Assembly (NCBI GenBank): GCA_028286285.1
Contig: JAQBRV010000002.1
Coordinates: 116,814 to 180,813 of the forward strand
Origin: Candidatus Saccharimonadota bacterium
GTDB taxonomy: Bacteria; Patescibacteriota; Saccharimonadia; Saccharimonadales; Saccharimonadaceae
Length of the DNA stretch: 64,000 nucleotides
Direction: 5' to 3'
Position 1 is the stretch's first letter. The number at the start of each line of letters is the position of its first letter. Under the pieces are notes generated by a model. The model did not search any database. It saw only the letters and a program-made list of their open reading frames with translations, and was not told the DNA's origin. Position numbers and translations under genes: made by a program. Of this stretch, positions 27,304 to 61,550 are shown piece after piece.

Positions 27304-28830
27304 ATGGCAGCTATAGAAATTACAGAACTATCAAAAGAACTCGAACAAGCCATTGCAGGCCTTGAGAAAAATGAAGGCTTAAAAGATGCCGGTATCGTTA
27401 TTCGCGTCGGTGACGGCGTGGCATGGGTGCACGGGCTTTCCGGTGCTGGTTATAGCGAAGTCCTGGAAATCGACACCAAAAATGGTGTGGTTGAAGCCTT
27501 TACGCTGAACCTCATGGAAGACGAAATCGGTGCCGTGATTTTGGGTGATGACAGCAAAGTCGCCGCTGGCGACACGGTTCGCTTAAAAGGCGTCGTATTG
27601 GAAGTTCCGGTCGGCCCAGAACTCCTCGGCCGCGTGGTTGATCCACTCGGTAACCCACTTGATGGTGGCCCAGCGATCAAAACCAAGCTGACTGGTCCGG
27701 TTGAGCGCGAAGCAATCGGCGTGATGGGTCGAAAATCGGTTCATGAACCACTGATGACTGGCATTATGGCGATCGACGCCATGTTTCCGATTGGTCGTGG
27801 TCAGCGCGAGCTGATTATTGGTGACCGCCAAACTGGTAAGACGGCGATTACTATCGATACCATGATCAACCAAGCCAAACAAAAGACTGGCGTGGTCAAC
27901 ATTTACGTCGCGATTGGCCAAAAACTATCGAAGGTCGCTCGACTCGTGGAGCGTCTGAAGCAAGAAGGCGTCATGGAACAAACGATCGTCGTGGCGACGG
28001 GTCCGTCTGACTCTGCCTCACTACTCTACCTGGCGCCGTACGCCGGGACTGCCATGGGTGAATATTTCCGTGATAACAAACAACATGCGCTCATGATTTA
28101 CGATGACTTGACCAAGCATGCTGTGGCCTACCGTCAAATGTCACTACTGCTACGTCGTCCACCAGGCCGCGAAGCCTTCCCTGGTGACGTTTTCTACCTG
28201 CACTCTCGCCTGCTGGAGCGCTCCGCGAAACTATCCGACGACCTCGGTGCCGGTAGCTTGACTGCCCTGCCGATCATTGAAACCCAAGCCGGCGACATTT
28301 CGGCCTACATCCCGACTAATGTAATTTCGATTACCGATGGTCAGATCTTCATGGAAACAGACCTGTTCTACCAGGGTATCCGCCCGGCGATCTCGGCTGG
28401 TCTATCGGTCTCACGTGTCGGTGGTGCGGCGCAAACCAAAGCCGTTAAAGGCGTTTCAAGCCACCTCAAGCTTGGCCTGTCACAGTTCCGCGAAATGGCC
28501 AGCTTTGCCCAGTTCGGGAGTGACCTCGACGAAGCCACTAAGTCACAAATTGACCGTGGTCAACGCTTGACTGAACTGCTCAAACAGCACCAATACCAGC
28601 CAATGAGTATTTGGGAGCAAGTTGCCTCTATCTTTGCTGTTTCAGAAGGTCTGTTCGATAAAGTTGCTGTCGCCAAGATTAAAGACGCCCAAGCTGCCCT
28701 GTTGACTAAGCTCTGGACCGATCACAAGGCGGAAATGAAAGAGCTTTCCAGGGGCGACAAGATGGCTGAAGCCACTGAAAAGATGATTAGAAAAGCTGGC
28801 GAAAGCGCCGCGAAGGGTTTTGAAGGCTAG
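27304..28830 (+). CDS. atpA: F-type ATP synthase subunit alpha
   Basis: 508 aa. GDRQTGKT P-loop and the conserved ITDGQIF. Confidence 0.95.
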
Positions 28831-47686: not shown

Positions 47687-47689
47687 TAT

Positions 47690-47721
47690 GGGTTGAGGTG
47701 GTGGATATGATTTGGCAAGAA
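47690..47721. repeat. Degenerate junction-box-like sequence (outlier)
   Basis: GGGTTGAGGTGGTGGATATGATTTGGCAAGAA compared with the box TGGCTGGGGTTAGTGGATATGGTTAGAA. Roughly two thirds identity with one gap. Confidence 0.3.
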
Positions 47722-47773
47722 TCCTGATAATCATGAGCCCCAATGGGAATGCATATCGTAACCCCAAAAGGCT

Positions 47774-48340
47774 TTACGACTCGGTGTTATCGTACAGCCA
47801 GCGTTTTAAGACCCTTTGAGTCAAAAATGGCATCAATAGATAGGTCAGAATAATCGGCGCCAGGACTGGCAAAAATAGTGCTCGGATCCAGACGGGCCAA
47901 TCTGCAATGTAGGGAGCCAAGAATACCGAGAAGAGCAAACTTATCGGGTAAATCGCAATAAAGGTAGCTACTACCATTTTCCACTTTGGCGGTGGTGTAA
48001 TTTGCTGGCCTGGAATCTCAAACCAGGTTTCGAGCCCAGTAGCCTTGACAGCAGTATCTATGTGGGCGATATTTCCCATGGCTTTCATCATCTTTCGACG
48101 TATAGGAGAACTCAACCACGCTTCAAGGTGGTTCGTAGTATCAAAACGTAAAACGGTCTGGAAGCTGTCTTTACGGGTCGGAGATTGCAGCGTGGTAACT
48201 CCCATATGTCCAGGAAAAGTACGGGCTACTTTATGAATGTCATGCATCATACGCTCAAACACCTGCACATTACCTTGTTTCACCGTCCAGCTGAACACTG
48301 TGGTGACTGGTTCGTTGGAGAATTTGTTTGATTGTGCCAT
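47774..48340 (-). CDS. ABM (antibiotic biosynthesis monooxygenase-like) domain protein with C-terminal TM helices
   Basis: 188 aa. FPGHMGVTTLQS..FQTVLRFDTTNHLEAWLSSP, then two hydrophobic helices. Confidence 0.6.
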   Translation of the reverse strand: MAQSNKFSNEPVTTVFSWTVKQGNVQVFERMMHDIHKVARTFPGHMGVTTLQSPTRKDSFQTVLRFDTTNHLEAWLSSPIRRKMMKAMGNIAHIDTAVKATGLETWFEIPGQQITPPPKWKMVVATFIAIYPISLLFSVFLAPYIADWPVWIRALFLPVLAPIILTYLLMPFLTQRVLKRWLYDNTES

Positions 48341-48400
48341 GACTACCTCCTATCTACCCACTCTTATATTATATGCCTACAAGAAAGAGGGAGCAAAGCC

Positions 48401-48430
48401 TGGCTGGGGTTAGTGGATATGGTTAGAATT
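48401..48430. repeat. Junction box copy (outlier, overlaps the stop of the GDPD gene)
   Basis: TGGCTGGGGTTAGTGGATATGGTTAGAATT. Confidence 0.6.
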
Positions 48431-49268
48431 TTTGATCTTGAGTGTTATTTTTACTTCGTAAAAACGGTAACCTCGATCGTTGACGATGCTGGTGCGGAGC
48501 GTCAACAAATGCATAGCGTGCACCTTTGATTTTGCGAACATCCTGCTCATCACGAGTCCACCACCAAGCGCCTATGTGGAGATTGAGTTTCTTTGCTTTT
48601 TTAATAAGCTCTGGCGTAATGTCATTACCATCTGGATGGTAGCTGTAGAGCCCCTGTGCTGAGGCCCATTCTAAACCTTCGTCGGTGACTTTGTTGACAA
48701 TAATTTCGTGCACGACAGTCGATGGGAGAAGCTTCATCGACACCAGGAGCATCGACCGGTCTTCTGAAGATATAATAATTTTCGGTTTTGTCAGCTTACG
48801 GCTCACTGCGCTACGATTTATATCATCAAGCCAGCCTGTTGAATGAAGTAGCTCGGCAACTTTTTGGGGCAAAGTAGGCTGATTTTTCTTTAGCTCAATA
48901 TGAACGTAGGCCTTCCCTCTTAAGAGTTTTAGCACTTCCAGAAGCGAGGGAATGGTTTGGTCTTTGTAGTTTGTACCGAACCATGAACCGGCATCTAGCA
49001 TTTTTAACTCAGCGTAGGTATGGTCTTTTAGTGCCCCACTGCCATTCGTCGTTCGATCTATAGTGGTGTCGTGCATAATCATCGGGACACCATCTTTGGT
49101 GAGCTGTACATCAAATTCAATATCTTTATAACCTCGATCGATAGCCATCATAAAAGCGGCATGCGTATTCTCGGGAGCGTGGATGGAATAACCACGATGG
49201 GCTACAAGCGTCGTACGTTTAAACACAATCTTAGTATACAAGATGAAAACGATGTGCAACACTAGCAT
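48423..49268 (-). CDS. Glycerophosphodiester phosphodiesterase family protein
   Basis: 281 aa. VAHRGYSIHAPENT..EFDVQLTKDGVPMIMHDTTIDRTTNG. Confidence 0.85.
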   Translation of the reverse strand: MLVLHIVFILYTKIVFKRTTLVAHRGYSIHAPENTHAAFMMAIDRGYKDIEFDVQLTKDGVPMIMHDTTIDRTTNGSGALKDHTYAELKMLDAGSWFGTNYKDQTIPSLLEVLKLLRGKAYVHIELKKNQPTLPQKVAELLHSTGWLDDINRSAVSRKLTKPKIIISSEDRSMLLVSMKLLPSTVVHEIIVNKVTDEGLEWASAQGLYSYHPDGNDITPELIKKAKKLNLHIGAWWWTRDEQDVRKIKGARYAFVDAPHQHRQRSRLPFLRSKNNTQDQKF

Positions 49269-49303
49269 TTACTGATACACTTAGCGAATGAGTTTATATA
49301 CTG

Positions 49304-50266
49304 ATGAGTATGTCAAAAACTAGATTATTATCTATCGTTGTGCCGCTCTTTAATGAGAGCGCTAGCTTCGAGGCGTTTCATGCGTCTCTGGTCGCTGTAC
49401 TCGAAAAATCAATCGAGATGCCTTACGAAATCCTTTATTGTAATGATGGCAGTTGGGATGACACGCTTAAAAAATTGACAGCGGCCGCTCACGAACATCC
49501 AAACATTCGTATCATTAGTTTATCTCGTAATTTCGGTAAAGAGCTGGCTACCACGGCTGGTATTCATGAGGCTCGGGGTAACGCTGTCCTCACTCTTGAC
49601 GCCGACGGTCAACATCCGGTAGAACTTATTCCTGAATTTGTGTCCCGCTGGCTAGCGGGTAGTAAGGTGGTGATTGGTATTCGTACCGCCAACCAAAAGG
49701 AGGGTATTGTTAAGCGCTATGGCTCAAAACTGTTTTATGGGCTTTTTAGTCGCATTACTGGCATGAAGCTTAGTGCTGGTCTGAGCGATTTTCGACTTAT
49801 TGATCGTGCCGTACAGCAAGATTTCATACGTATGACCGAACGTAATCGTATTACACGCGGGCTCGTTGAATGGCTGGGATACCCGCGCGAATATATCAAG
49901 TTCAAAGCGCATCCGCGCCTCGCTGGAGATGCTACCTACTCTATTAGGAAGTTATCAAAGCTGGCGATCGACAGCGCTGTTTCGCTTAGTATTTCGCCTC
50001 TCTACATCACCGCATACATGGGCGCCTTCGTGTTGCCCGTGTCCATACTCTTGGGCCTTGGCATGTTGATTGATACTTTGACGAATGATCCCCTTCATCT
50101 GCATATTACAGGTAGCGCGTACGTCGTTGTGTTACTACTCTTTTTGATAGGAATCTTGCTTATATCACAAGGAATCATTGGCCTGTACTTATCTCATATC
50201 CATTCCGAAACACAAAATCGTCCACTCTATATTATCGATAAAGACAGCTCGCTGGGCATCGAATGA
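49304..50266 (+). CDS. GT2 polyprenyl-phosphate glycosyltransferase (DPM1/ArnC-like)
   Basis: 320 aa. LSIVVPLFNE, DDGSWDDT, LDADGQHP and two C-terminal TM helices. Confidence 0.85.
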   Translation: MSMSKTRLLSIVVPLFNESASFEAFHASLVAVLEKSIEMPYEILYCNDGSWDDTLKKLTAAAHEHPNIRIISLSRNFGKELATTAGIHEARGNAVLTLDADGQHPVELIPEFVSRWLAGSKVVIGIRTANQKEGIVKRYGSKLFYGLFSRITGMKLSAGLSDFRLIDRAVQQDFIRMTERNRITRGLVEWLGYPREYIKFKAHPRLAGDATYSIRKLSKLAIDSAVSLSISPLYITAYMGAFVLPVSILLGLGMLIDTLTNDPLHLHITGSAYVVVLLLFLIGILLISQGIIGLYLSHIHSETQNRPLYIIDKDSSLGIE

Positions 50267-50679
50267 GAGCGGCTGTCAAATCCTTCCTCCGTCACCCCAC
50301 GAGGCGTTACTTGCTTATTGGGCTGAGCGTCTATATTCTTGAGCTCGGTGTTATTGTTGTTGCACAATGGCTCGGTGCTAGTGCGATTATTGCCGTGGCG
50401 CTTAGTTTCTGGCTTGGGGTCGCCGTGTCCTTTTTGTTGCAAAAGTTCATCACGTTTCGAGATACGCGTTTGCATCACCGTGTATTGCTGCCACAGATCA
50501 TTGCGGTATCGATGTTGATACTGTTCAATTTTGGCTTCACGATGGTCATAACGGGATTATTGACAAATCTCCTCCCGGCGGTCGTCATTCGAACGATAGC
50601 GTTGGGTATAACCACGCTCTGGAATTTTTATCTCTATCAGACTCATATCTTCAAAACGAGTGAAGGCCCAGCACGCTGA
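50263..50679 (+). CDS. GtrA family membrane protein
   Basis: 138 aa with four TM helices. Overlaps the GT2 stop by 4 nt. Confidence 0.7.
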   Translation: MRAAVKSFLRHPTRRYLLIGLSVYILELGVIVVAQWLGASAIIAVALSFWLGVAVSFLLQKFITFRDTRLHHRVLLPQIIAVSMLILFNFGFTMVITGLLTNLLPAVVIRTIALGITTLWNFYLYQTHIFKTSEGPAR

Positions 50680-53317
50680 GATGTCGAAACTGAAAAAGAA
50701 GTCCGCTCATTATCTTAAGCTTCTTCGAAAAGAGAGTAAAAAATCTTTTTTCGCCAAGAGGTATGCCGTCGTTGCGGTAGGTATATTGATAGCAACGACT
50801 TTGTACTGGGCACTCCTCGGCACCCAGATACACGCAGGCAATGCGGATCAGCTGGCGAATAGCTTTTTATTTGAAAGTGATGGTACTTTTAAAGCCGCTA
50901 CACTGCCCGATCAGCATACGTTTCTCTTAAAATGGCCAGTCTTCTTACTCATTAAACTATTTGGCTTGACGAGTATTGCATTTACAGCCGTCACTGTAGC
51001 CGCGGTACTTATCACTGTCGGAGCACTCGCTTATATAATGCATCGTATTGAGCGACGGCCATTGATTTTTGGTACGCTGTGTCTCGCTCTCGCTTCCTGC
51101 CTATTACTCGTTCCAATCGAGCCATACCCTGGGGCATCGTTGCCAGTTGGTATGGCAATGATAACGACTCGTAATCTTGAATATATTATCTTTTTAGCCA
51201 GTCTGATTTTATTAATACGATCACAGAGATGGCTGAGCTGGCGATTTATGACCGCTAGTTTACTGATAGCGTTACTCATTGCTAGCGACAAATTATTTCT
51301 CTCGGTTTCTATTGGCGGAGCGGTTCTGGCACTGATTTTTTATGCCACGGCTCGTCGGTGGGCTCTAGCAAAGTTAGCGGCAATGTGGCTCGGCGCGAGT
51401 ATTGCCGGTACAGTGGTGGCGACAGGTGTGCTCTGGCTTATTAATGCTTCGGGTATAACACATATTGCGAGTGGTACGATCGCTGGGCCCTATGCGTTCG
51501 TGCAGACTGGCAAGGAAGTGGTGCTGGGTATTGTCCATGCCATGCTCAGTTTGTTGACGAATCTCGGAGCTAATCCCGCAAGCGATACGCGACTGCTTGG
51601 TACGGTGCCGAGTCAAGCGGCGGCAAGTCTCACAAGTCCACGTGGCCCTGGGCTCATTATTAATGTCTTGATCGCTCTGGCTGGATTCACTGCTGTCGTT
51701 TACATAATCCGTATCAGTATGCAGCGTATCAAGACCAAAAAGAAAGCACGCACAAGAAAGGCAGTTTCACCCCGGGACGAAGCACTCAACATCTCAGCCA
51801 TGCTTATCTGGAGTACGATTGCAGCATGCGGTGCCTTCGTCATTAGTAATCATTATTACCCTGTAGACGCACGCTACGTAGGAATCGCTGTGTTCGCTCT
51901 CTTCATCTCGCTGGCAACCTTTGTACGGAGCTACCGGTTTAAGCGTCCAGAACGGATAGTATTAGTTGGCGCGGTTATTGTAGTAAGTATTTTCATGAGC
52001 TTGGGAGCTGCCACCAGTAGCCATAATGAGGAAAAAGCAGCCCATGCTGACATAGCCGGACGCAATAGCAGTATTCTTGGAGCGATCAAGCACCACCCTG
52101 TCGATGTATTGGTCGGCGACTATTGGCGCGTCTTGCCGATCAAGCTGGCGGCAAAGACTCCACTCGCCATCACTCCGCTGGCCGGCTGCACCCAGAGCCG
52201 CGAGGTGCTCAGCAGCCACATCTGGCAACTAGATTTGCGACACCATAGCTTTGCCTACATACTGACACTAGACCGTGGCATCACCGATGATTATCCATCG
52301 TGTTCGCTCGCACAGGTAACCAAAACGTACGGGCAGCCGAATACAAGCGTTGTACTATCAGGTAGCCTCAAGCAGCCGAAAGAACTCCTGCTGTTTTATG
52401 ACAAGGGTATTCACAAGAGCACGCCAAAAGCCCTTACTCCTTTTTCCCCGTTGGTACCGGCTACTGTAGTTCCAATTGCGATCGAGAGCGCCCCTTATAC
52501 TCGTTGTACAGAACCAACTACTATGAATATCGTGGCACACGAGGATGACGATTTATTATTTATGAACCCCGATCTATTGCATGACATCCAAGCAGGTCGG
52601 TGCATTCGTACCGTGTATGTGACATCTGGAGATGCAGGCACGGATAAATACTATTGGCTTGGTCGTGAAATGGGATCGGAAGACGCCTATCTCAGCATGG
52701 AGGGTCTTGCCGAGGACACTCTCTGGATCCAACGTATTATTAAACTACCGGGCGGCCAGTTCATTACCATTGCTAATCCTCGAGGGAATGCAAAAGTATC
52801 ACTTATCTTTATGCATTTGCCAGATGGTAATGTCGGCGGACAAGGATTTGGTTTATCACACCACGAAAGTTTGAGCTATCTTGAACGTGGCCGAATCCCT
52901 CAAATTCATACCACCGATCACCAATCGACTTACTCCTCGAGCCAACTTGCCGAAGCACTCACTACACTCATGGAGACTTATCGTCCGGACGAGATACGGA
53001 CACAGGCAAACATGGTAGACCGCCGCTATCCCGCTGATCATAGCGACCACATGGCGGTTGGACGGTATGTGAAACAGGCGTATCAAAAATATATCGACAA
53101 TTCAGGTGCGCAGATAATTTCTCCACTGGTATTTTATGTAGGGTACCCTATATCTGGTATGCCGGCTAATGTTGTCGGTGAAGATTTGGCTCAAAAGCAA
53201 CGTGCCTTTTTTACTTACGCCCGCAATGATCTTGCTGTGTGTGGCTCATTGGAGCAATGCTCACACGGCTCGGCATATAGTTCCTACCTGAAGCGTCAAT
53301 ACAAAACTGACTACTAG
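50660..53317 (+). CDS. Fusion protein: GT-C-like multi-TM glycosyltransferase domain plus C-terminal PIG-L/LmbE-family deacetylase domain
   Basis: 885 aa. About 12 TM helices in the first 440 aa. The C-terminal NIVAHEDDDLLFMNPD..VTSGDAG..HSDH matches the LmbE-type AHPDDE/HxDH pattern. Confidence 0.65.
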   Translation: MKAQHAEMSKLKKKSAHYLKLLRKESKKSFFAKRYAVVAVGILIATTLYWALLGTQIHAGNADQLANSFLFESDGTFKAATLPDQHTFLLKWPVFLLIKLFGLTSIAFTAVTVAAVLITVGALAYIMHRIERRPLIFGTLCLALASCLLLVPIEPYPGASLPVGMAMITTRNLEYIIFLASLILLIRSQRWLSWRFMTASLLIALLIASDKLFLSVSIGGAVLALIFYATARRWALAKLAAMWLGASIAGTVVATGVLWLINASGITHIASGTIAGPYAFVQTGKEVVLGIVHAMLSLLTNLGANPASDTRLLGTVPSQAAASLTSPRGPGLIINVLIALAGFTAVVYIIRISMQRIKTKKKARTRKAVSPRDEALNISAMLIWSTIAACGAFVISNHYYPVDARYVGIAVFALFISLATFVRSYRFKRPERIVLVGAVIVVSIFMSLGAATSSHNEEKAAHADIAGRNSSILGAIKHHPVDVLVGDYWRVLPIKLAAKTPLAITPLAGCTQSREVLSSHIWQLDLRHHSFAYILTLDRGITDDYPSCSLAQVTKTYGQPNTSVVLSGSLKQPKELLLFYDKGIHKSTPKALTPFSPLVPATVVPIAIESAPYTRCTEPTTMNIVAHEDDDLLFMNPDLLHDIQAGRCIRTVYVTSGDAGTDKYYWLGREMGSEDAYLSMEGLAEDTLWIQRIIKLPGGQFITIANPRGNAKVSLIFMHLPDGNVGGQGFGLSHHESLSYLERGRIPQIHTTDHQSTYSSSQLAEALTTLMETYRPDEIRTQANMVDRRYPADHSDHMAVGRYVKQAYQKYIDNSGAQIISPLVFYVGYPISGMPANVVGEDLAQKQRAFFTYARNDLAVCGSLEQCSHGSAYSSYLKRQYKTDY

Positions 53318-53340
53318 ATCGGTCGGCTAGTAGATGTCTT

Positions 53341-53583
53341 TCAAGAAAGTTTGGAAGCAAGCCACTCTCTTAATAAGAGCGTTGTGCCGGCGTACGGGAA
53401 TATTGCGTAGAACATGTCAGAAACAGAGTGAGCATTCCGCGCTGCGGTCATAACTACAGTAACTACGAATAACATAGCAACGGCATCGATAAGGTAGCTG
53501 CCAGAGGTAATGGGTACGTGGACAATTTTACTATTTCGGTAAAGTTTCACAGCCTCAGTATACCAGAACATCTTTAATATCAA
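53341..53583 (-). CDS. Small membrane protein
   Basis: 80-aa ORF with two hydrophobic helices. Leftmost unit of the array. Confidence 0.4.
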   Translation of the reverse strand: MILKMFWYTEAVKLYRNSKIVHVPITSGSYLIDAVAMLFVVTVVMTAARNAHSVSDMFYAIFPYAGTTLLLREWLASKLS

Positions 53584-53612
53584 ATATCAGAGATGTTAAA
53601 ATGCATGCATCT

Positions 53613-53649
53613 CGGCTGGGCTTAGTGGATGTGTTTCAAACTTTTCAGG
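53613..53649. repeat. Junction box copy
   Basis: CGGCTGGGCTTAGTGGATGTGTTTCAAACTTTTCAGG. Overlaps the stop codon of ORF 53645-54058. Confidence 0.75.
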
Positions 53650-54058
53650 TCGATGTTGGTAAAATAGCGTACATCGGCACTCCCGGAAGCCTTTTCCTGA
53701 AACCTGACGTCGCCTGAAATATGTTGTTATTGTACGGCAGATTGATCCATGGATCCATCCAACCTTTATTGTGTCGAATGAGATAATGTCCGCTTGGATA
53801 GCGTTTTGATCGCCGAATAAGTACTATAGTGCCTTCCTGGTATATTAATTTTCTAATATGCGGCTTTACATGCTTTGATATGTACCCTGCACCTGCACAA
53901 TTTAGTGCAGTAGTTAAATCATTAACCCAAAATCGCGTACTCACGGCCTGCTTTGAGCCTAATTGTGTCGCTGCTTGCTGGTAATTCAAATTAAGCGCGA
54001 ACGCATAGCAAGCAATCCCGCATCCATGATCAAATTCTTGTGTAACGCTTTCCTTCAT
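53645..54058 (-). CDS. Peptidase C39-like (papain-fold cysteine peptidase) domain protein
   Basis: Start at MKESVTQEF (ATG 54058). FDHGCGIACYAFALN (Cys) and PSGHYLI (His). Confidence 0.55.
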   Translation of the reverse strand: MKESVTQEFDHGCGIACYAFALNLNYQQAATQLGSKQAVSTRFWVNDLTTALNCAGAGYISKHVKPHIRKLIYQEGTIVLIRRSKRYPSGHYLIRHNKGWMDPWINLPYNNNIFQATSGFRKRLPGVPMYAILPTST

Positions 54059-54090
54059 GTAGCTAGTGTAGAATTTATAATTATATAAAC

Positions 54091-54126
54091 AAGTGCAAAA
54101 CAAAAAGACTTTGCAAGGAAGTCTTT
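54091..54126 (-). terminator. Intrinsic terminator-like hairpin (minus strand) following a junction box
   Basis: AAAGACTT/AAGTCTTT stem (54104-54126), followed on the minus strand by a T-rich run. Confidence 0.45.
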
Positions 54127-54133
54127 AACATGC

Positions 54134-54171
54134 TTGGCTGGGCTAGTGGACATATTTAGAACTTTTCAAGG
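54134..54171. repeat. Junction box copy
   Basis: TTGGCTGGGCTAGTGGACATATTTAGAACTTTTCAAGG. Lies 10 nt from the cassette A hairpin. Confidence 0.75.
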
Positions 54172-54580
54172 TAGTTATTTGGGTGAGGAGGTCGATGTTC
54201 AGACCTCCTCACCCTGGGTGAGTTTTGAGTTTGACCACTAGACTTGCGTCTATCATTCATGTGGATGGCAGTGAGGAAACGAGAGTAGAGAACTCAACCA
54301 AGAAACATTCACTCTCTTCACATACCTTTTTCGGTTGCGGCTTATCTTGTCAGCGTTGCTGATCTGACTTAGATAGCCGATGCCCCGCTTGCGCGGAGCG
54401 CCCCTACTGTCGGGTATCTAATCCGACGGGGTATTTCTTTCGGCACGCGATACTTTCGTACCACGGACTCTTGCCAGCACTTAGCGCAACAATGTCACGG
54501 GGTTACCGGCAAAGAGACGAACGCGCATTAGATATTTCACACCTGCACATTCATCATTTTTTATCATAACATTCTTTTAC
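54172..54580 (-). ncRNA. ORF-less cassette A: GC-rich structured RNA containing a 16S 790-loop-like hairpin
   Basis: No ORF of 60 aa or more in any frame across 54104-54664. Minus-strand hairpins capped by GNRA loops: GGUAC-GAAA-GUAUC (54449-54462) and CUCCGC-GCAA-GCGGGG (54383-54398). GUCGG-AUUAGAUAC-CCGAC at 54410-54428. A 13-bp perfect hairpin lies at the 3' end (54181-54214). Confidence 0.5.
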
Positions 54581-54613
54581 CGGAAAATAAAAAGACTTCG
54601 CTAGGAAGTCTTT
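54581..54613 (-). terminator. Intrinsic terminator (minus strand) following a junction box
   Basis: AAAGACTTC-GCTAG-GAAGTCTTT hairpin, followed on the minus strand by TTATTTTCC. Confidence 0.5.
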
Positions 54614-54627
54614 TAGCGTGAGCGTCT

Positions 54628-54659
54628 TGGCTGGGGCTAGTGGATGTGTTTCAGGAAAG
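54628..54659. repeat. Junction box copy
   Basis: TGGCTGGGGCTAGTGGATGTGTTTCAGGAAAG. Lies 5 nt from the Nudix stop codon. Confidence 0.8.
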
Positions 54660-54664
54660 TGAAA

Positions 54665-55066
54665 CTACAAACTTTTTAGAACTTCAGCTAAATATGGCTC
54701 CGCGTTAATAGATTTTATGTTGTCCAAGCTTACCCATTGGTATACCTCATGCTCATCGCTTAAATGTATCTCTGATATATTTTCTTCAATTACGTAAGTA
54801 AGACGCACGACATGGAGGTCTTTGGTAGTCACAAAAATATCTTGTGCGGCTATTAGTTCTGGTGTTGAATATATATCATAACCAACCTCTTCTTTTATCT
54901 CACGTTTTAATGCATCAATTAAGTTCTCGTCTGGATTAATTCTCCCTCCTGGAATGTCCCAAGATGTTTCACTAGAGTCAGTAGTTAGTAAGTTACTTCT
55001 TCGCAGGAATAAGCATTCATTACCACTATTCTTAATAATCGCTTTTACACCAATTTGAAGTATCAT
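54665..55066 (-). CDS. NUDIX hydrolase
   Basis: 133 aa. Nudix box GGRINPDENLIDALKREIKEEVGY. Confidence 0.85.
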   Translation of the reverse strand: MILQIGVKAIIKNSGNECLFLRRSNLLTTDSSETSWDIPGGRINPDENLIDALKREIKEEVGYDIYSTPELIAAQDIFVTTKDLHVVRLTYVIEENISEIHLSDEHEVYQWVSLDNIKSINAEPYLAEVLKSL

Positions 55067-55110
55067 ACATACATTGTAGCAGGAAGGTGGTCTTACCCTT
55101 CATTAAACTT

Positions 55111-55557
55111 TTAAGTCAAAATGTCTAGCATTGCATCCTGCTCATTAAGCGAAAGTGGTTCAAATTTATCTCTGCTCCATCGCAAAGCTTCTGTGTATGC
55201 TTCCTCGCCTGGATTACTGGGTAGGATATGAAAATGAACATGATTCATTTTTACTCCGTCCTGATCTATAGAAGGTCTTGTTTTTTGCCACACATCAACC
55301 CCAAGAGCAATCGTCCCCAAAAGACGTCTATATATAGGTGAAATAAGTTCATGTATCGCCTGTACCTCATCGCTACTCAAATCATCCAATGACTCTGAGT
55401 GTCTTTTAGGTATAACCAAACTATGTCCAGTCACTAAGCGTGGCGATGAAAGTAGGCTTATCGCGTGTTCATTGGAGCTTATCATTCTTTCAGAAAAGCT
55501 TGAAGGTTCACAAAAATTGCATTCGCTGCTCGACATCATGATCAAGTATTTGGCCAT
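55111..55557 (-). CDS. HIT (histidine triad) family protein
   Basis: HVHFHILP triad and a CNFC N-terminal motif. The start is uncertain (the track ORF extends to 55611; alternatives at 55557 or about 55539). Confidence 0.75.
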   Translation of the reverse strand: MAKYLIMMSSSECNFCEPSSFSERMISSNEHAISLLSSPRLVTGHSLVIPKRHSESLDDLSSDEVQAIHELISPIYRRLLGTIALGVDVWQKTRPSIDQDGVKMNHVHFHILPSNPGEEAYTEALRWSRDKFEPLSLNEQDAMLDILT

Positions 55558-55608
55558 AGGTATGAAATTGCAAGCACAACCATAAAACAAAAAAATACCA
55601 TGATTGAC

Positions 55609-55661
55609 CATAGTGTTTATACTGGGCTGGGGCTAGTGGATGTGTTGAGAACTTTTGAGAC
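55609..55661. repeat. Junction box copy with left extension
   Basis: CATAGTGTTTATACTGGGCTGGGGCTAGTGGATGTGTTGAGAACTTTTGAGAC. Lies 4 nt from the MazG-like stop codon. Confidence 0.8.
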
Positions 55662-55665
55662 AGGG

Positions 55666-56022
55666 CTAATCGTTGTTTAACATGAGTAAGCGCAACTTGA
55701 ATCCGCCACGCTTTTGACGCTTTTCATCTTGAATAGCTTGGATTTGTTCAAGAGAGACGCCTTTTAGTTCGAGGATTGCATCTAGAATCTCTCTTACATC
55801 TGCAATTTCTTCAAGGATATTCGAATCAGTTACCGCGTTCTCTAGCTCTTGTGCCTCTTCGGTAACTTTTTTAAGAAGGAAATGTAAAAACTCTTCATCA
55901 TCAAGTGTTCTTGTATCAACTTCTCTACCGTCAGCTAGTATAATCTCCGGAATCCGATCTCGAATTAATTTAGGGTATTCGTTTTCTGCTGGTAGATCAG
56001 TGATCGTATGTTCAAATGTCAT
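55666..56022 (-). CDS. MazG-like / all-alpha NTP pyrophosphohydrolase family protein
   Basis: Start at MTFEHTITD (ATG 56022). KLIRDRIPEII, EEAQELENA, EEIADVREILDAI and QDEKRQKRGGF. Confidence 0.7.
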   Translation of the reverse strand: MTFEHTITDLPAENEYPKLIRDRIPEIILADGREVDTRTLDDEEFLHFLLKKVTEEAQELENAVTDSNILEEIADVREILDAILELKGVSLEQIQAIQDEKRQKRGGFKLRLLMLNND

Positions 56023-56066
56023 AATTTGATTATAGCAAACAAAAGACCTCACAGTGGAGTCATTCG

Positions 56067-56112
56067 TATAGCGCTTATGCTCGGCTGAGCTAGTGGGTAT
56101 TTCAGGAAATGG
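56067..56112. repeat. Junction box copy with left extension
   Basis: TATAGCGCTTATGCTCGGCTGAGCTAGTGGGTATTTCAGGAAATGG. Abuts the stop codon at 56113. Confidence 0.75.
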
Positions 56113-56304
56113 TTATTGATTCTGCTGATTCATCGCTGCAATTTGGTCACTAAACCTTTTCAGTTCAGCTTGAGATTGGTAGAAATCACTCAATAGCTGA
56201 TCATCGACCCCCTCTTGCAAGATGCCCTTGCTCTGCACCTTTGCCATAATATCGGTTGCTCGTCTCAGTACTGCACCATATGCTTCTATAAATTCTGGAG
56301 TCAT
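56113..56304 (-). CDS. Small helical hypothetical protein
   Basis: 63-aa ORF. Its stop abuts a junction box. Confidence 0.4.
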   Translation of the reverse strand: MTPEFIEAYGAVLRRATDIMAKVQSKGILQEGVDDQLLSDFYQSQAELKRFSDQIAAMNQQNQ

Positions 56305-56364
56305 GCTCTTACTATACGCTGGTACTAGCTGTAAAGGTATAGGCCGCCCAAGTCAGAGTATTAT

Positions 56365-56392
56365 TTGGGGCTAGTGGATGTTTCAGGAAGAA
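56365..56392. repeat. Junction box copy (left part missing)
   Basis: TTGGGGCTAGTGGATGTTTCAGGAAGAA. Confidence 0.7.
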
Positions 56393-56463
56393 TTACAACT
56401 TACGAATCGCACCTTCATGGCGTTCGCCTAGTTCGCGAAGATGTGCGGGTACAGTCGCTAGTC

Positions 56464-56934
56464 CTATCGCAGACATAACCCCCCTGAAATATGTGTAAGT
56501 GTTTCGTTGCCTCCTGCTGACATTGACATGAATGCTGCAGTCGCTAGATTTGTCGCCTTCTGATAAGACTGACCCTTGGTTACTTCGCCTGTCTTTAGTA
56601 GGTGGACACTATTGAAAGTGCCTGCAGCAATAGCACGCGCCGCCAGAACTATCGCGTATGGGACTGAAGCCGGATTAGTTTTTGTAATTTCATATGTGAC
56701 CCTCGCAATAGATAAATGGTCGACAACACCATCTGCAACTCTACGCATTGGAGTATCGGCGTTAAATTTTCTTAAGATTGCACCATCAAGAACATCAGCT
56801 ATGACAAATGCTGCCATATGACCACAGATTGGTTTATGTTGATCAACTCGACGAGCCATTTTCTCGGCAAGTAAATATCTGGCACCTGTCAGTGCTATGC
56901 CTGGCAACTCTTTAGAAATATGCGATATCTTCAC
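56464..56934 (-). CDS. Short CDP-alcohol phosphatidyltransferase-like protein
   Basis: 156 aa, GTG start. DVLDGAILRKFNADTPMRRVADGVVDH fits D-x2-DG-x2-AR-x8-G-x3-D-x3-D, except that the Gly is replaced by Arg. Confidence 0.45.
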   Translation of the reverse strand: MKISHISKELPGIALTGARYLLAEKMARRVDQHKPICGHMAAFVIADVLDGAILRKFNADTPMRRVADGVVDHLSIARVTYEITKTNPASVPYAIVLAARAIAAGTFNSVHLLKTGEVTKGQSYQKATNLATAAFMSMSAGGNETLTHISGGLCLR

Positions 56935-56982
56935 TCAGATCAATATTAGCAAAAATACCCCATACAATATATAGGGTATTTT

Positions 56983-57030
56983 TATAGTGCTTATGCTCGG
57001 CTGGGGCTAGTGGACGTGTTTCAGGAAGAA
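56983..57030. repeat. Junction box copy with left extension
   Basis: TATAGTGCTTATGCTCGGCTGGGGCTAGTGGACGTGTTTCAGGAAGAA. Confidence 0.85.
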
Positions 57031-57383
57031 TCAATTCATGGATAGTCGCGGTGGACGAGGGGTTCATTCATCCCTCGTCCACCGCTTATAGCGAGCAGTA
57101 CTAGAGCCTTCGGCTATATTAACTCGAAGGTCGTGCCTCATCCAGTGACTGGTATTCAAAGATCGACTCCACGACAACTTGCGCCGTCGCTTCATTGTCT
57201 CCCAGCTATCCTATACATCTGGAATATTGACTCTACGTACCTAGGTGTGAGGAACCGAACCCCGCAAGCGCAGATCAATCTACGCAGGCCACCCAACGTC
57301 ACCATATTCGCAAGATTATTATATCCGGCTTCGTAACAAAACTACAAGCATAAACAAGAAGACTTCCGAAGGGATCTTGATTC
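57031..57383 (-). ncRNA. ORF-less cassette B: GC-rich structured RNA
   Basis: No convincing ORF (only a 67-aa plus-strand ORF of odd composition). A 14-bp perfect hairpin at 57048-57085 lies directly next to the box, as in cassette A. On the minus strand, the GACGGC-GCAA-GUUGUC hairpin has G-U pairs that would be A-C mismatches on the plus strand. Confidence 0.4.
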
Positions 57384-57431
57384 TATAGTGCTTATGCTCG
57401 GCTGGGGCTAGTGGATGTGTTTCAGGAAGAA
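57384..57431. repeat. Junction box copy with left extension
   Basis: TATAGTGCTTATGCTCGGCTGGGGCTAGTGGATGTGTTTCAGGAAGAA. 47/48 identical to the copy at 56983. Confidence 0.85.
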
Positions 57432-57480
57432 ACTGCGGCTATAACAATAGAAAACGGAGTTAGTATAATCAATCAAATGC

Positions 57481-57918
57481 CTATGCTTGTCCATCTCTAT
57501 TAGGGTCGAATTCTACCGTCCACTCAATACCGTACTTGTCTCTAAACATCCCGAAATACGTATCCCATGGGCTATCGCCCATAGGCATTTCAATCGTTCC
57601 ACCTACAGTAAGTCCGGTGAATATGTTGTCGGCTTCTGCACGACTTTCCGTACTAATTGATATCTTAGACCTGTTTTCTTTTTCATTTACTGGACCCATA
57701 CTTTCAGGAACATCATTGGCTATTAAAGTATTCGCACCAATCGGCAAAGCAATACGCATGATTTTATTTGCTTCATTTTCTGGTACAGGAAACTCTGAGC
57801 TTTCTAGATCTTTGAAGCGCACAATAGTTTCGAACTCTCCACCAAACACAGATTTGTAAAAAATGAAGGCTTCTTCGGCATTTCCGTTGAAGTTAATGTA
57901 AGGATTGATAGTTGCCAT
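57481..57918 (-). CDS. VOC-superfamily protein (PhnB-like)
   Basis: 145 aa. INPYINFNGNAEEAFIFYKSVFGG .. FRDKYGIEWTV. Confidence 0.75.
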   Translation of the reverse strand: MATINPYINFNGNAEEAFIFYKSVFGGEFETIVRFKDLESSEFPVPENEANKIMRIALPIGANTLIANDVPESMGPVNEKENRSKISISTESRAEADNIFTGLTVGGTIEMPMGDSPWDTYFGMFRDKYGIEWTVEFDPNRDGQA

Positions 57919-57977
57919 TTAGATTATTCCCCTTAGTAAATATTTAGTTTCATTTCTATTTTAGCAGATGTAACTTT

Positions 57978-58024
57978 CATAGCACTTCTGTTTGGCTGGG
58001 CTGGCGGACGTGTTTCAGGAAGAA
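57978..58024. repeat. Junction box copy with left extension (diverged)
   Basis: CATAGCACTTCTGTTTGGCTGGGCTGGCGGACGTGTTTCAGGAAGAA. Confidence 0.75.
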
Positions 58025-58058
58025 TTTCCACCCTCCTAATTATTAATCTGGAGATTAA

Positions 58059-58517
58059 TCACTTACCAGCAAACACGTCCACTTGATCTTTAGCAGTAAT
58101 AATAAAGTTGCGAAGATTCTTCTGCACGAGCGTTTCCCAGCCATCGGAGCAATTTAGATAGCACGCAATCAGGGGCACTAAGCCTCTATGCGTAAAGACC
58201 AACTCAGTTTTGCCATCTTTTTCATTAATCTCGAAGATTATGTCAGTACCTTTCCACTCGTCTTTTTTATCGACAAAGCTTAAGTAACCATCTGTAACAT
58301 GCCACACTATCTTTTCTGCTGGAACAAATTCAGTTACTTTTTGTGTAGATCGGTGTATGTCACTGTATCGATAGGTAAATTCCGCGCCAAGTTTTTCTGG
58401 GTTTCCTTCGATCTCACCTGACCACCAGCCACGAACATTATTGATCGCATCAAATACTTCTTGAGGGGTTTGCTCCACCAATATGCTGGTGGTGAAATCT
58501 TGGTTATTATTTGTCAT
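58059..58517 (-). CDS. SRPBCC / AHSA1-domain protein
   Basis: Start at MTNNNQDF (ATG 58517). VFDAINNVRGWWSGEIEG..FTYRY. Confidence 0.7.
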   Translation of the reverse strand: MTNNNQDFTTSILVEQTPQEVFDAINNVRGWWSGEIEGNPEKLGAEFTYRYSDIHRSTQKVTEFVPAEKIVWHVTDGYLSFVDKKDEWKGTDIIFEINEKDGKTELVFTHRGLVPLIACYLNCSDGWETLVQKNLRNFIITAKDQVDVFAGK

Positions 58518-58596
58518 GATGAATCTCCTCTTATTTATTAAGTATAGTGTATATATAGTGGTTTCAAATTGCAACCGCTTTTGTTATACTTATGAT

Positions 58597-59004
58597 ATGA
58601 AAAAGCGAAGCCCAACAATATGTCCGATTGTTTTTTCTCTTGATACATTTGGAGACACATGGAGCTTAGTGATACTCAGAGACATCTTGCTTTTTAATAA
58701 ATCCCATTTTCGAGAATTTCTAGTATCCAAAGAAAAGATTGCGAGCAATATTTTGAGTGCCCGGCTCGAGACCCTTATTGACAACGGATTACTTACCAAA
58801 GAAGCAGATATGAATAATAAAAGTGCTGCTATCTACAAGCCGACGAATAAAACACTCGAGTTGTTGCCCATGATATTAGAGATGATGAAGTGGGGTGTTA
58901 GGTATAATCCAGACACAGATAGGAAAAGTGGTCCGATCATGCATCTACTGCTTACTGACCCCGAGGGATTACGTACGAGCGTAGTCTCAAAGTTCAAAGC
59001 TTAG
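58597..59004 (+). CDS. HxlR-type winged-helix transcriptional regulator
   Basis: Start at MKKRSPTICPIVFSLDTFGDTWSLVILRDIL (ATG 58597). Divergent from the SRPBCC gene. Confidence 0.75.
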   Translation: MKKRSPTICPIVFSLDTFGDTWSLVILRDILLFNKSHFREFLVSKEKIASNILSARLETLIDNGLLTKEADMNNKSAAIYKPTNKTLELLPMILEMMKWGVRYNPDTDRKSGPIMHLLLTDPEGLRTSVVSKFKA

Positions 59005-59090
59005 TCAGCTGTACTGAGGCGAAAAAACGAGTGTTCTGATCCCGATCCGAATTATGAAAAACGCCAGACTGCACGGTCTGACGTTTTTCA

Positions 59091-59121
59091 TGGCTGGGGT
59101 TAGTGGACGTGTTTAGGAAAC
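59091..59121. repeat. Junction box copy
   Basis: TGGCTGGGGTTAGTGGACGTGTTTAGGAAAC. Preceded by the bidirectional terminator-like hairpin AAAAACGCCAGAC..GTCTGACGTTTTT (59056-59087). Confidence 0.75.
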
Positions 59122-59153
59122 ACTAATGCATAATTCAATCGGGAATCCGATTC

Positions 59154-59735
59154 TTAACTTTTAATTTCGTGTGCAGTGCCATCGTTAAATGTTGCCTTCA
59201 ATTCAACGAATACATCTGTTGGATGTAGATCGGTTTGGTCAAAGGCTAATCTTTTGGCCTCAGGCTCAATAAATATTTGCGTCTTTTGTTTTTTGCCCTT
59301 TTCTCCAGCATACACAACTAATTGAATGCCTCTTTTAGATTCCATTAGTTGTGATGTTACAAAGTATTTGTCATCACTAGTCTTGAGTTTCTCTTTAGCA
59401 ATAGGTACAGCCTCGTCATCAAGATTAATGGTAGCCATCTTTGAGTAATTAAGGGCATCTAAACGTTTTTGTACATATAGTCTTTCTTGCGAATAAATAC
59501 GAGGCATTGTGTACATGTGCCCTTCATCGCAGTATAAATACTGGCCGTCTGACCAGCTTATTGTCGATTGTCCGTTAATAGTAGCAGAATGGTTGCTACT
59601 TGATGGGGTTAATTTCATTGAATGTTTGGGGCATATTGCATGCACTTCCTCAACTAGCTTACCCCTTACATTTATCCTTTGGGCTGAATGCCATTTAACA
59701 CTATCCACTCGTACCAATTTGTCATCGGAATTCAT
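59154..59735 (-). CDS. Hypothetical protein with a possible CxxH..CxxxH metal knuckle
   Basis: Start at MNSDDKLV (ATG 59735). AICPKH .. YCDEGH. No family recognised. Confidence 0.5.
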   Translation of the reverse strand: MNSDDKLVRVDSVKWHSAQRINVRGKLVEEVHAICPKHSMKLTPSSSNHSATINGQSTISWSDGQYLYCDEGHMYTMPRIYSQERLYVQKRLDALNYSKMATINLDDEAVPIAKEKLKTSDDKYFVTSQLMESKRGIQLVVYAGEKGKKQKTQIFIEPEAKRLAFDQTDLHPTDVFVELKATFNDGTAHEIKS

Positions 59736-59824
59736 ATATGAATTATACACCCATATGTACAGCATATCTTCTATCTGTTAGAATAGTATCAAATTTATTG
59801 TGGTGGGCTGAAAGTCGGCTACTC

Positions 59825-60940
59825 ATGGTTTTAAAAGAATTTCTCCAAGACTTAGATATAACTACAGAGTTCTTCAATTTTACAGGTTTTATTGATAATT
59901 TTGCTGTTACTGCCAATATTGCGCAAAATGCAAAAAATGGAACAAGTTCAGACTGGCGTACTGAACTTGACGCACAAATTACCATAATAGATGAAGCCGT
60001 CCTAAGCTTTGAGGTTAGCCAGTCTACTCTTCTTATCGAAAATTCTTACATAGAGGCTTCCGATTCTGCATATACGATTTTGAATTATCGATCAACATTA
60101 ATTAATATTTTTGACGATATCCTAACAGCGGATGTAGAGATTAATCGGCATTCAGAAGAGTTAAGAACTTTTCGAGCCAATACCGTTCAGATTAAAGACA
60201 GCCTAGAAGAGGTGGGCATCAATATTCCAAAGCAAGAAGAGCACGATGGCTATTTGGTAAAGTTTGAGTTTAAACAATTGAGCGACTTTGATTCGATGGG
60301 AAAGCTTGGAGCTACTGGGCATGCCTTAAATAGGCATATTCGCTCGCTCATGAAATTAGATCCAGATGCCCCACTAAAAGATATCGAAATTTCAACAGTA
60401 TCTAAATCATCTCCTTTTATGATTAGTGTATGGCTAACTAAGAAGGCTGCTGATGCAATCAACGCTATTATTGGTGGCGGTCTAGAGAACTATAAAAAGA
60501 TGCAAGAGATCCAAGTATTAAATGAAGATGTCAAAAAAGCAAAGCTAGGAACTCGCTCAGCGCAGATCGGTGTCATTCTTGATGAGGCCCGAGCGGACTT
60601 GGAACTATCTGTCATTAACGAACTTAAAAATGATCTGATGGTGGGATATCCACCAGAAGGCCCCAACGGCACAAAATCCGAAGTTGAAGAAGGAGTAGCA
60701 AAAGCGATTCAATACCTAGTCTCTCAAACCGGCAAAGGCCTTGAGGTAAAAGTTCTGCCCCCCACTACGGATATTAATTCTGACGCAACCGGGAGGGACA
60801 TAATTAAGGAATATGCACAAAAGAGAATCCGCGCAGAACAGATTATGAAGCAATTGCCTAATAGTATCGAGTCAGACGATTCTGCGGATGAGGTCGAAGT
60901 TCATCCTGATCCTGTTGAAGACGCATATATTGTAGCTTAA
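59825..60940 (+). CDS. Hypothetical 371-aa protein, largely helical, acidic C-terminus
   Basis: Start at MVLKEFLQDLD (ATG 59825). No catalytic motif recognised. Divergent from the previous ORF. Confidence 0.55.
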   Translation: MVLKEFLQDLDITTEFFNFTGFIDNFAVTANIAQNAKNGTSSDWRTELDAQITIIDEAVLSFEVSQSTLLIENSYIEASDSAYTILNYRSTLINIFDDILTADVEINRHSEELRTFRANTVQIKDSLEEVGINIPKQEEHDGYLVKFEFKQLSDFDSMGKLGATGHALNRHIRSLMKLDPDAPLKDIEISTVSKSSPFMISVWLTKKAADAINAIIGGGLENYKKMQEIQVLNEDVKKAKLGTRSAQIGVILDEARADLELSVINELKNDLMVGYPPEGPNGTKSEVEEGVAKAIQYLVSQTGKGLEVKVLPPTTDINSDATGRDIIKEYAQKRIRAEQIMKQLPNSIESDDSADEVEVHPDPVEDAYIVA

Positions 60941-61107
60941 TATTGCTGACGGCTAAAGCATAGATTAATTGTCAAAAAATTCAACGGCTAAGAAGCCGAT
61001 AGGCACATGGCGAAGACTGTGCTAGAATCGAGCTCGCCGTTGAAAATGATGACTTTACAACAGCTACGTAACTAGAAGTAGTTTAACCTCAATGATATAA
61101 TAGACCT

Positions 61108-61220
61108 ACGACCTACGCAGCGGGGCGCGGATGAATCAAATAGCTACATTGTAGGAAAGAAACATCCGTAGTTGGAGACCACGCAAAGAAGTAAATATCT
61201 TCGTTCGTGGTCTCTTTTAT
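61108..61220 (+). ncRNA. Candidate small RNA bracketed by an extended -10 promoter and an intrinsic terminator
   Basis: TGATATAAT at 61093-61101. GAGACCACG/CGTGGTCTC stem at 61175-61214, followed by TTTT. The interval contains only a 7-codon ORF. Confidence 0.3.
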
Positions 61221-61239
61221 TATCCCTATCAATCAAACT

Positions 61240-61425
61240 TGGCTGGGGTGGAGGGATTCGAGTCACGTTCCGCGACCCCGCAACTTCGCGATTGACGATT
61301 AATCGTCATCGGAAGATTGCTCTCAAACTGCCACTGGCAGTTTTCGCCCCGAATGTGCACTCGAGGGTTTGAACCCACTCATCCGCAATCACGCAAAAAC
61401 CCGACCAAATGGTCGAGCCTCTGCG
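61240..61425 (-). pseudogene. Degenerate partial tRNA-Gln copy (anticodon-stem to 3' end) interrupted by about 95 nt
   Basis: The minus strand reads ..GTGCACATTCGGGG[insert]TCGAATCCCTCCACCCCAGCCA, against the gene's GTGCCGACATTCGGGGGTTCGAATCCCTCCGCCCCAGCCA. Confidence 0.55.
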
Positions 61426-61475
61426 TGGCTGGGGTGGAAGGCCTGCCTACCGGCAGGGATTCACTACATGCTTCC
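61426..61475 (-). repeat. 50-nt segment ending in a second copy of the tRNA-Gln acceptor 3' end (ACCCCAGCCA)
   Basis: TGGCTGGGGTGGAAGG.. lies directly downstream of the tRNA-Gln CCA end and contains a CCTGCC-GGTA-GGCAGG hairpin. Confidence 0.55.
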
Positions 61476-61550
61476 TGGCTGGGGCGGAGGGATTCGAACC
61501 CCCGAATGTCGGCACCAAAAGCCGATGCCTTACCACTTGGCGACACCCCA
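61476..61550 (-). tRNA. tRNA-Gln (anticodon UUG), CCA encoded
   Basis: TGGGGTGTCGCCAAGTGGTAAGGCATCGGCTTTTGGTGCCGACATTCGGGGGTTCGAATCCCTCCGCCCCAGCCA. Anticodon loop TTTTGGT. Confidence 0.9.

Follow-up and report, generated by a model that had tools for sequence, protein, structure and literature searches.

A gene-less unit of a tRNA-Gln-anchored cassette array in Saccharibacteria as a candidate structured RNA gene

In a 64-kb stretch of a “Candidatus Saccharibacteria” metagenome-assembled genome (MAG) (contig JAQBRV010000002.1, positions 116,814 to 180,813; here, the window, in whose numbering positions are given), an array of small cassettes begins at a tRNA-Gln gene and occupies positions 47689-61550. 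One of its units, cassette A (54135-54629), contains no gene. Our analysis suggests that this unit may instead be an accessory structured non-coding RNA gene, a reading to which we assign a probability of somewhat less than one-half (about 0.45). It is supported by a strand-specific excess of GNRA-capped hairpins, by the asymmetry of folding z-scores between the two strands, by the placement of a predicted promoter and a predicted terminator, and by the lack of a coding signal. To our knowledge, almost no non-coding RNAs are known in bacteria of the candidate phyla radiation (CPR).

Cassette A is a unit without a gene

The array contains about 11 direct repeats across 48.4-59.1 kb, all in the same orientation as the tRNA-Gln(UUG) gene (61476-61550, minus strand), and its G+C content is about 0.42, versus 0.49 for the whole window. 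The units are 0.3 to 1.5 kb in size and mostly hold one small gene each, all in the tRNA orientation; the contents are small accessory genes, such as those for NUDIX, HIT, and glyoxalase proteins. Cassette A is bounded by direct repeats in the same way as its coding neighbors, as a preliminary description of this DNA had stated. Its 5' boundary is the upstream junction repeat TTCCTGAAACACATCCACTAGCCCCAGCCAAG (54626-54657, minus strand), a pseudo-copy of the tRNA-Gln 3' end that follows a 21-mer pattern found in Saccharibacteria loci, and its 3' boundary is the downstream junction repeat GTTCTAAATATGTCCACTAGCCCAGCCAAG (54133-54162, minus strand). Each repeat is accompanied by a terminator (54584-54614 and 54097-54126, respectively), and cassette A, with a junction and a terminator on both sides, thus belongs to the tRNA-Gln-anchored array. 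The published annotation of the MAG (locus tags JWM00_412 to 421) is blank between the NUDIX gene and the adjacent unit, which carries an open reading frame (ORF) of 152 amino acids (aa). The AtpD protein encoded in the window has 100% identity to one of a “Candidatus Saccharibacteria” MAG, and its close relatives are without exception from Saccharibacteria or Saccharimonadales.

The absence of any ORF of 60 aa or more was likewise confirmed, since the longest start-to-stop ORF of cassette A in six frames has 45 aa and the longest stop-free frame has 68 codons. No protein homolog at E ≤ 1 was found among 5.8 billion proteins for the 12 stop-free stretches of at least 30 aa, which were searched from six frames as a concatenated query. 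The 68-aa stop-free frame gave only two matches to repeat proteins among 1.8 billion protein representatives, which were rejected as spurious, and back-translated seeds of this frame recovered no relatives from JGI metagenomes or IMG/VR. It could still be supposed that cassette A encodes one or more micropeptides of 22-45 aa, or else a protein in an alternative genetic code: the minus strand does contain ORFs of 28-34 aa, and reading TGA as a sense codon opens a frame of 139 codons on the plus strand. We consider this very improbable. Neighboring genes of Saccharibacteria use the standard code, and the 139-codon frame, which lies opposite to all cassette genes and has no homolog (nor does its 68-aa part), was rejected. 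There is no visible ribosome-binding context for the small ORFs, and the 34-aa ORF runs across a perfect 13-bp hairpin.

The G+C content of cassette A is 0.47 (54172-54627), rising to 0.51 in the core and 0.56 in the center, while the coding neighbors range from 0.36 to 0.46. The core is thus above the array (0.42) and roughly equal to the genome as represented by the window (0.49), so that the earlier label “GC-rich” holds relative to the array but not relative to the whole window.

Predicted transcript and strand-specific RNA structure

Like all its neighbors, cassette A would be transcribed on the minus strand, from a predicted extended -10 promoter, TGTTATGAT (54563-54571, minus strand; motif class TGnTAnnnT). 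The identical string occurs in two related array loci (L039 and L101), where it serves coding units. An ATG, the first A of which is the predicted transcript start, lies 5 nucleotides (nt) from this element, and the only “gene” that would be read at this normal leaderless start is a vestigial ORF of six codons (MMNVQV and a stop; ATGATGAATGTGCAGGTGTGA, 54537-54557, minus strand). Because the promoter is followed by this 6-codon ORF alone and the next terminator lies at 54126-54097, we expect transcription of the minus strand to yield an RNA of about 455 nt, extending from about position 54557 to the junction terminator. The latter, a hairpin with a U-run (54097-54126, minus strand) that would form the 3' end of the cassette A transcript, is 90% identical to 54584-54613 and is conserved in other arrays. 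Its upstream counterpart, AAAAGACUUC-CUAGC-GAAGUCUUUUUAUUUU (54584-54614, minus strand), which was called by a terminator scan and is conserved after junctions and genuine tRNA-Gln genes in many loci, is predicted to end the transcript of the upstream NUDIX gene. The cassette A promoter is about 20 nt further from this terminator than is usual for coding cassettes.

The product would be the RNA itself. Five local helices would make up its G+C-rich core (54339-54512), and the 3' part would add two hairpins and a 13-bp clamp. Its three GNRA tetraloops could engage in tertiary or protein contacts, and the RNA may act in trans as an accessory RNA. All hairpins named in the preliminary description are indeed present on the minus strand. 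Read 5' to 3' on this strand, the core begins with helix H2 (UUGCCGGUA..UGCUGGCAA, 54471-54512), which encloses the hairpin CGUGAC-AUU-GUUGCG and appears in every fold, followed by hairpin H3 (CGUGGUAC-GAAA-GUAUCGCG, 54446-54465), with an 8-bp stem and a GAAA tetraloop, and by hairpin H4 (CCCC-GUCGG-AUUAGAUAC-CCGAC-AGUA-GGGG, 54401-54431). Hairpin H5 (GCUCCGC-GCAA-GCGGGGC, 54382-54399) has a 7-bp stem and a GCAA tetraloop, and the nested hairpin H6 (GGCUAUCU-AA-GUCAG-(10-nt loop)-CUGAC-A-AGAUAAGCC) spans 54339-54378. Hairpin H7 (GAGAGUG..UACUCUC, 54281-54316) is less G+C-rich and its fold is less certain; hairpin H8 (UAGAC-GCAA-GUCUA, 54239-54252) carries the third GNRA cap. The terminal perfect 13-bp hairpin, GGGUGAGGAGGUC-UGAACAUC-GACCUCCUCACCC (54181-54214), is not followed by a U-run. 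The helices recur across folds of three different subranges.

Both motif and thermodynamic signals are specific to one strand. Three GNRA-capped hairpins with stems of at least 5 bp are present on the minus strand, versus 0.09 expected from dinucleotide shuffles (P of about 0.001). The plus strand has none, and coding cassettes totaling 4.5 kb yielded one such hairpin in the sense and two in the antisense orientation. For the whole unit, the folding z-scores are -5.5 (minus) and -3.7 (plus). Much of the former value comes from the perfect hairpin and the junction terminator, and the core was therefore folded alone. The 291-nt core has z-scores of -2.6 (minus) and -1.1 (plus), and the central stretch of 171-188 nt has z-scores of -3.9 (minus) and -1.9 (plus). 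Eight coding units of the array gave minus-strand values of +1.1 to -2.3.

The likeness to 16S rRNA

The preliminary description had drawn attention to a 13-mer, GGATTAGATACCC (54412-54424, minus strand), in hairpin H4. As stated there, it is presented in a hairpin with a 9-nt loop, AUUAGAUAC, here on a GUCGG/CCGAC stem, and in its rRNA form, GGAUUAGAUACCC, it equals positions 785-797 of Escherichia coli 16S rRNA, which was used as the reference in all 16S comparisons in place of the organism's own 16S rRNA. The 13 nt identical to 16S helix 24 (the 790 loop) comprise the 9-nt loop with two G-C pairs that close it, whereas the outer stem and all flanks of the cassette A hairpin differ, and there is no further similarity. 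However, an identity of this length is within chance for a 64-kb window: the window and E. coli 16S have six 13-mers (at five sites) and one 14-mer in common, and about three are expected. That such matches arise by chance is also indicated by another of them, GATACCCTGGTAG (16S positions 791-803), which lies inside the protein-coding gene atpA (28368-28380, minus strand). The best local alignment of cassette A to E. coli rrsH does not extend past the 13-mer, and 12 of 300 shuffled versions of the cassette align equally well. We therefore take the 16S-like loop as a coincidence.

Two functional or historical explanations built on this loop lose their footing accordingly. The first is that the RNA mimics the helix-24 loop and so serves as a decoy that some factor or toxin recognizes, or that a 5' octamer is used against the loop. 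The identity of the loop and its closing pairs and their presentation in a hairpin speak for it, as do the absence of the 13-mer elsewhere in 0.83 Mb of array loci (0 occurrences) and a perfect 8-nt complement, UAUCUAAU (54527-54534, minus strand), of the loop AUUAGAUA, with which it could form a long-range pairing. That complement is weak evidence and near chance by a rough estimate (about 0.05). Nothing else in the RNA is specifically 16S-like, no known factor was linked to the loop in this analysis, and no homologs display its conservation, so that with the chance-level 13-mer as its sole basis, mimicry is highly improbable.

The second explanation, a heavily deleted 16S pseudogene fragment captured between two junctions, is the least probable of those we weighed. 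A free-gap “spliced” alignment of cassette A to E. coli 16S did give a z-score of 2.9 on the sense strand only, composed of short blocks from 16S positions 350 to 1540, and no such excess was seen against reversed 16S or 23S rRNA. However, a coding control cassette reached z = 2.4, and removal of the 13-mer lowered the score to 0.5-1.85, which shows that the 13-mer carries the excess; the halves of the cassette also match the wrong half of 16S about equally well. The spliced homology was dropped after these controls (13-mer masking, wrong half, and 23S). The “530-loop” and “900-tetraloop” look-alikes, described earlier as standing in 16S order, accordingly show no colinearity beyond chance, and the local hairpins into which the 16S-like strings fold have no counterpart in 16S rRNA. 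Searches of three stretches (including ones of 1,001 nt and 401 nt) with the Rfam models for small-subunit (SSU) and large-subunit (LSU) rRNA returned no match at the gathering threshold, nor at E ≤ 10.

Cassette A has no detectable relatives

Among the 4,227 families of Rfam 15, searched at the gathering threshold and at E ≤ 10, none corresponds to cassette A. Group I and group II introns, RNase P, T-boxes, and single-strand origins were considered by eye and dropped without a model match. In structure, cassette A is comparable to the large GNRA-rich bacterial non-coding RNAs of Rfam (ROOL, GOLLD, raiA, and OLE), which likewise span several hundred nt with multiple helices and GNRA tetraloops, occur in accessory or mobile contexts, and are obscure in function. 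It differs from them in matching no Rfam family even at E ≤ 10 and in being a single sequence, not yet a family.

Nucleotide searches were equally negative. Neither cassette A nor cassette B, a second ORF-less unit described below, matched anything in at least 110 array loci by nhmmer or blastn, and blastn against plasmids and phages returned nothing but a 28-nt chance match. A covariance model built from the single sequence (R1) matched only itself. The exact 22-mer around the loop had 0 matches in 185,579 GTDB genomes, source genome included, and an 18-mer from the GAAA hairpin was found in one IMG/VR phage sequence without flanking similarity, which was rejected as a chance match. Syntenic loci, reached via the neighboring P-type ATPase and a cassette with a PhnB-like gene, proved to be related arrays without cassette A. 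Exact look-ups of the small ORFs and the neighboring proteins found only the source MAG and the sequencing run SRR13312974, in which the contig breaks at the junction.

Several points thus weigh against the reading of cassette A as an RNA gene. (i) No homolog was found by nhmmer, blastn, or the single-sequence covariance model in about 0.77 Mb of related arrays (110 Saccharibacteria array loci), and scans of metagenome and viral contigs with translated seeds found no relative; hence, there is no support from covariation or conservation. The best Rfam scores (13-20 bits; microRNA and small RNA models, E values of 0.45-5.7) are far below the thresholds. (ii) The z-scores of the core are moderate, one coding cassette reaches -2.3, and folding is weak in the A+U-rich 3' third (54255-54335). 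(iii) The promoter is a consensus match only, and a generic promoter scan did not call one at 54563-54571. (iv) In related arrays, the units that have no ORF are A+T-rich and show no structure, so the lack of a gene does not by itself imply an RNA gene. (v) The assembly of the MAG across the repeats is possibly imperfect. The missing homologs are not strong evidence against function, because only eight unit families were common to more than one locus among the 88 unique units sampled. The earlier proposal of an ORF-less cassette encoding a structured minus-strand RNA is therefore upheld by the sequence-internal signals and not by covariation, for which no homologs were available.

The main rival is that cassette A is non-functional filler, that is, captured or decayed DNA between two junctions, transcribed or not, in which the hairpins are remnants or accidents. 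We regard this as possible, though doubtful. Cassette A is an orphan in every search, its 6-codon ORF at the normal start resembles the stump of a lost gene, and 10 of 88 units in related arrays (about 11%) also lack an ORF of at least 60 aa. Decay of array units can be observed next door: the 152-aa ORF unit beside cassette A (53645-54113) recurs in three other Saccharibacteria arrays (L021, 4913-5391; L008, 3775-4219; L025, 447-894; nhmmer E values of 1e-29 to 1e-35), which shows that array units are shared between species, and its nucleotide homologs in L021 and L025 have no ORF of more than 41 aa and are probably decayed or frameshifted. However, cassette A retains no residual coding signal or protein homology in any frame, and its G+C content, strand-specific GNRA caps (P of about 0.001), and folding asymmetry are unlike those of a decayed A+T-rich cassette gene. 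These traits are also missing in the other ORF-less units: all ten from related arrays are A+T-rich and have no GNRA excess, which makes cassette A unusual even for a unit without a gene.

Cassette B (56999-57400) has the same traits as cassette A and on this account favors the interpretation as a structured RNA. Its G+C content is 0.51, and its minus-strand z-score is -3.45. It contains an 8-bp hairpin with a GCAA cap and ends in a perfect 12-bp hairpin (about 57050-57085); a TATAAT promoter is present, and the normal start opens a 43-aa ORF. Rfam yielded no match to it, and the fetched array loci contained no homolog.

A tRNA-Gln-anchored array in Saccharibacteria

The units of the array are separated by junctions of about 80 nt that copy the 3' end of tRNA-Gln and its trailer (examples are 54563-54657 and 56950-57030 in the window and those in loci L024, L039, L050, L080, and L098). 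A junction is composed of a pseudo T-arm and an acceptor 3' strand with CCA (consensus, TTCCTGAAACACRTCCACTAGCCCCAGCCAAG), the trailer AAGATGCTTATGCTT, and a perfect 9- to 10-bp terminator hairpin, AAAGACTTC..GAAGTCTTTTT, with a U-run. Trailer and hairpin of this type also follow genuine tRNA-Gln genes in L061, L083, and L086. At many junctions, the terminator is followed by an extended -10 element (TGnTAnnnT), and an ATG stands exactly 6 nt further on in 63 of 168 junction-like sites, which suggests leaderless mRNAs. As far as these predicted promoters and terminators go, the arrangement implies that the units are insulated, each with its own promoter and a leaderless mRNA, unlike promoterless integron cassettes. 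Two more partial copies of the tRNA-Gln 3' end (TCGAATCCCTCCACCCCAGCCA, 61240-61261, and GGCCTTCCACCCCAGCCA, 61426-61447), located no more than 250 bp downstream of the intact tRNA-Gln gene, resemble leftovers of past recombination events.

The 21-nt junction pattern ACAYRTCCACTARCCCCAGCC was found in 33 loci of GTDB genomes and in 71 metagenome contigs, which carry no taxon names, and had no match in IMG/VR. Every taxon named in the records of the genome loci belongs to Saccharibacteria, and a few records say only “bacterium.” Most loci have two to five junction copies in a single orientation. A tRNA-Gln gene (UUG or CUG) is located directly upstream in the same orientation in 18 of the 33 genome loci, and no other tRNA type was found upstream of an array among them. 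Thus, the tRNA-Gln-anchored cassette array appears to be widespread in Saccharibacteria (loci L003-L039 and L041-L111 were compared), and we found no description of such arrays in the literature searched.

Judged by its sequence, the array is not an integron and its units are not integron cassettes, since there is no integrase in the window, no attC site, and a separate terminator at every junction. The earlier framing of the units as cassettes needs correction on this point. Scans with Pfam or NCBIfam detected no tyrosine or serine recombinase domain in 48 ORFs of the window, a set that covers nearly all ORFs of at least 150 aa, and an adjacent IntI with attI and Pc is not present within the window. 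The junction sequences contain no RYYYAAC/GTTRRRY pair, and in place of promoterless cassettes under a single upstream promoter, we found junctions that carry terminators and often an extended -10 element. The movement of the units could be due to a recombinase encoded elsewhere or to homologous recombination between the junctions of about 80 nt after natural transformation, the latter being a route that we infer.

Nevertheless, ORF-less integron cassettes, known from Vibrio superintegrons and Treponema oral integrons (PMC11014356, PMC6557892), offer the closest comparison in some respects. Like them, cassette A is short, has no gene, shares the boundaries of its single-gene neighbors, and stands among small accessory genes that all point the same way; units without a gene are a minority in arrays of its type as well, at about 10%. 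The platform of cassette A differs in lacking IntI (in the window), attI, Pc, and attC hairpins; in place of attC, the junctions are copies of the tRNA-Gln 3' flank and a terminator, often followed by a promoter. Moreover, cassette A is far richer in G+C and structure. Because gene-less integron cassettes often carry promoters (PMC11014356, PMC6557892) and cassette A has a promoter-like element, it might be a regulatory cassette that drives or modulates the next unit. This is unlikely: the promoter-donor role shown for the integron cassettes is unnecessary here, because the junctions often supply a promoter of their own (with the ATG 6 nt on at 63 of the 168 sites sampled). In addition, the conserved terminator at 54126-54097 stands between cassette A and the next gene, and about 400 nt of G+C-rich helices would be superfluous for a promoter.

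The array also resembles the tandem accretion of integrative elements at tRNA 3' ends by att duplication. It begins at a tRNA gene (as in 18 of the 33 genome loci), follows the orientation of tRNA-Gln, and has junctions ending in the acceptor 3' strand and CCA (GCCCCAGCCA). It differs in that the units are only 0.3 to 1.5 kb and have no integrase, that the junctions also take in the tRNA trailer and a terminator, often followed by a promoter, and that the conservation of junctions between units and species exceeds their likeness to the genuine tRNA T-arm.

Other parts of the array region are more heterogeneous. An atypically large, multigene unit of 5.2 kb lies between two junctions at 48402-53614. 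It encodes a glycerophosphodiester phosphodiesterase and, in addition, a glycosyltransferase, a 138-aa ORF, and an 885-aa PIG-L-domain protein on the opposite strand. The unit nearest the tRNA gene contains a 400-aa ORF (59738-60940) on the opposite (plus) strand and a 203-aa ORF (59154-59765) on the minus strand. Pfam and PHROGs gave no match for the two ORFs, nor did NCBIfam for the 400-aa one; by sequence, both look unlike recombinases. In the corresponding region of relatives, a large serine recombinase adjoins the orthologous P-type ATPase gene, together with a rolling-circle Rep gene (L036, 4619-7266), and another is located about 6 kb from the PhnB-like cassette gene (L112, 2334-3932). 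These large serine recombinases suggest that other mobile elements also use the array region.

Implications for Saccharibacteria

While the idea of a ribosomal-loop mimic fails the test against chance, a candidate accessory RNA gene remains. Cassette A is a gene-less cassette, which is a known kind, but it resides on a different platform and has the traits of an RNA gene. That cassette A, and perhaps the unit at 56999-57400 as well, encodes, as a mobile gene, a large structured RNA of a new class and is carried in an integrase-less tRNA-Gln-anchored array is a tentative proposal that we consider rather doubtful. If it is true, the array would be an integron-like platform whose junctions supply a terminator and, in many cases, a promoter for leaderless transcripts, and the RNA would represent an accessory function exchanged between epibiotic CPR bacteria. 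Should transcription and homologs be found, it would follow that such arrays mobilize genes for RNAs in addition to those for small enzymes. The array is itself possibly the more valuable lead, as an analog of the integron in ultra-small, naturally competent epibionts.

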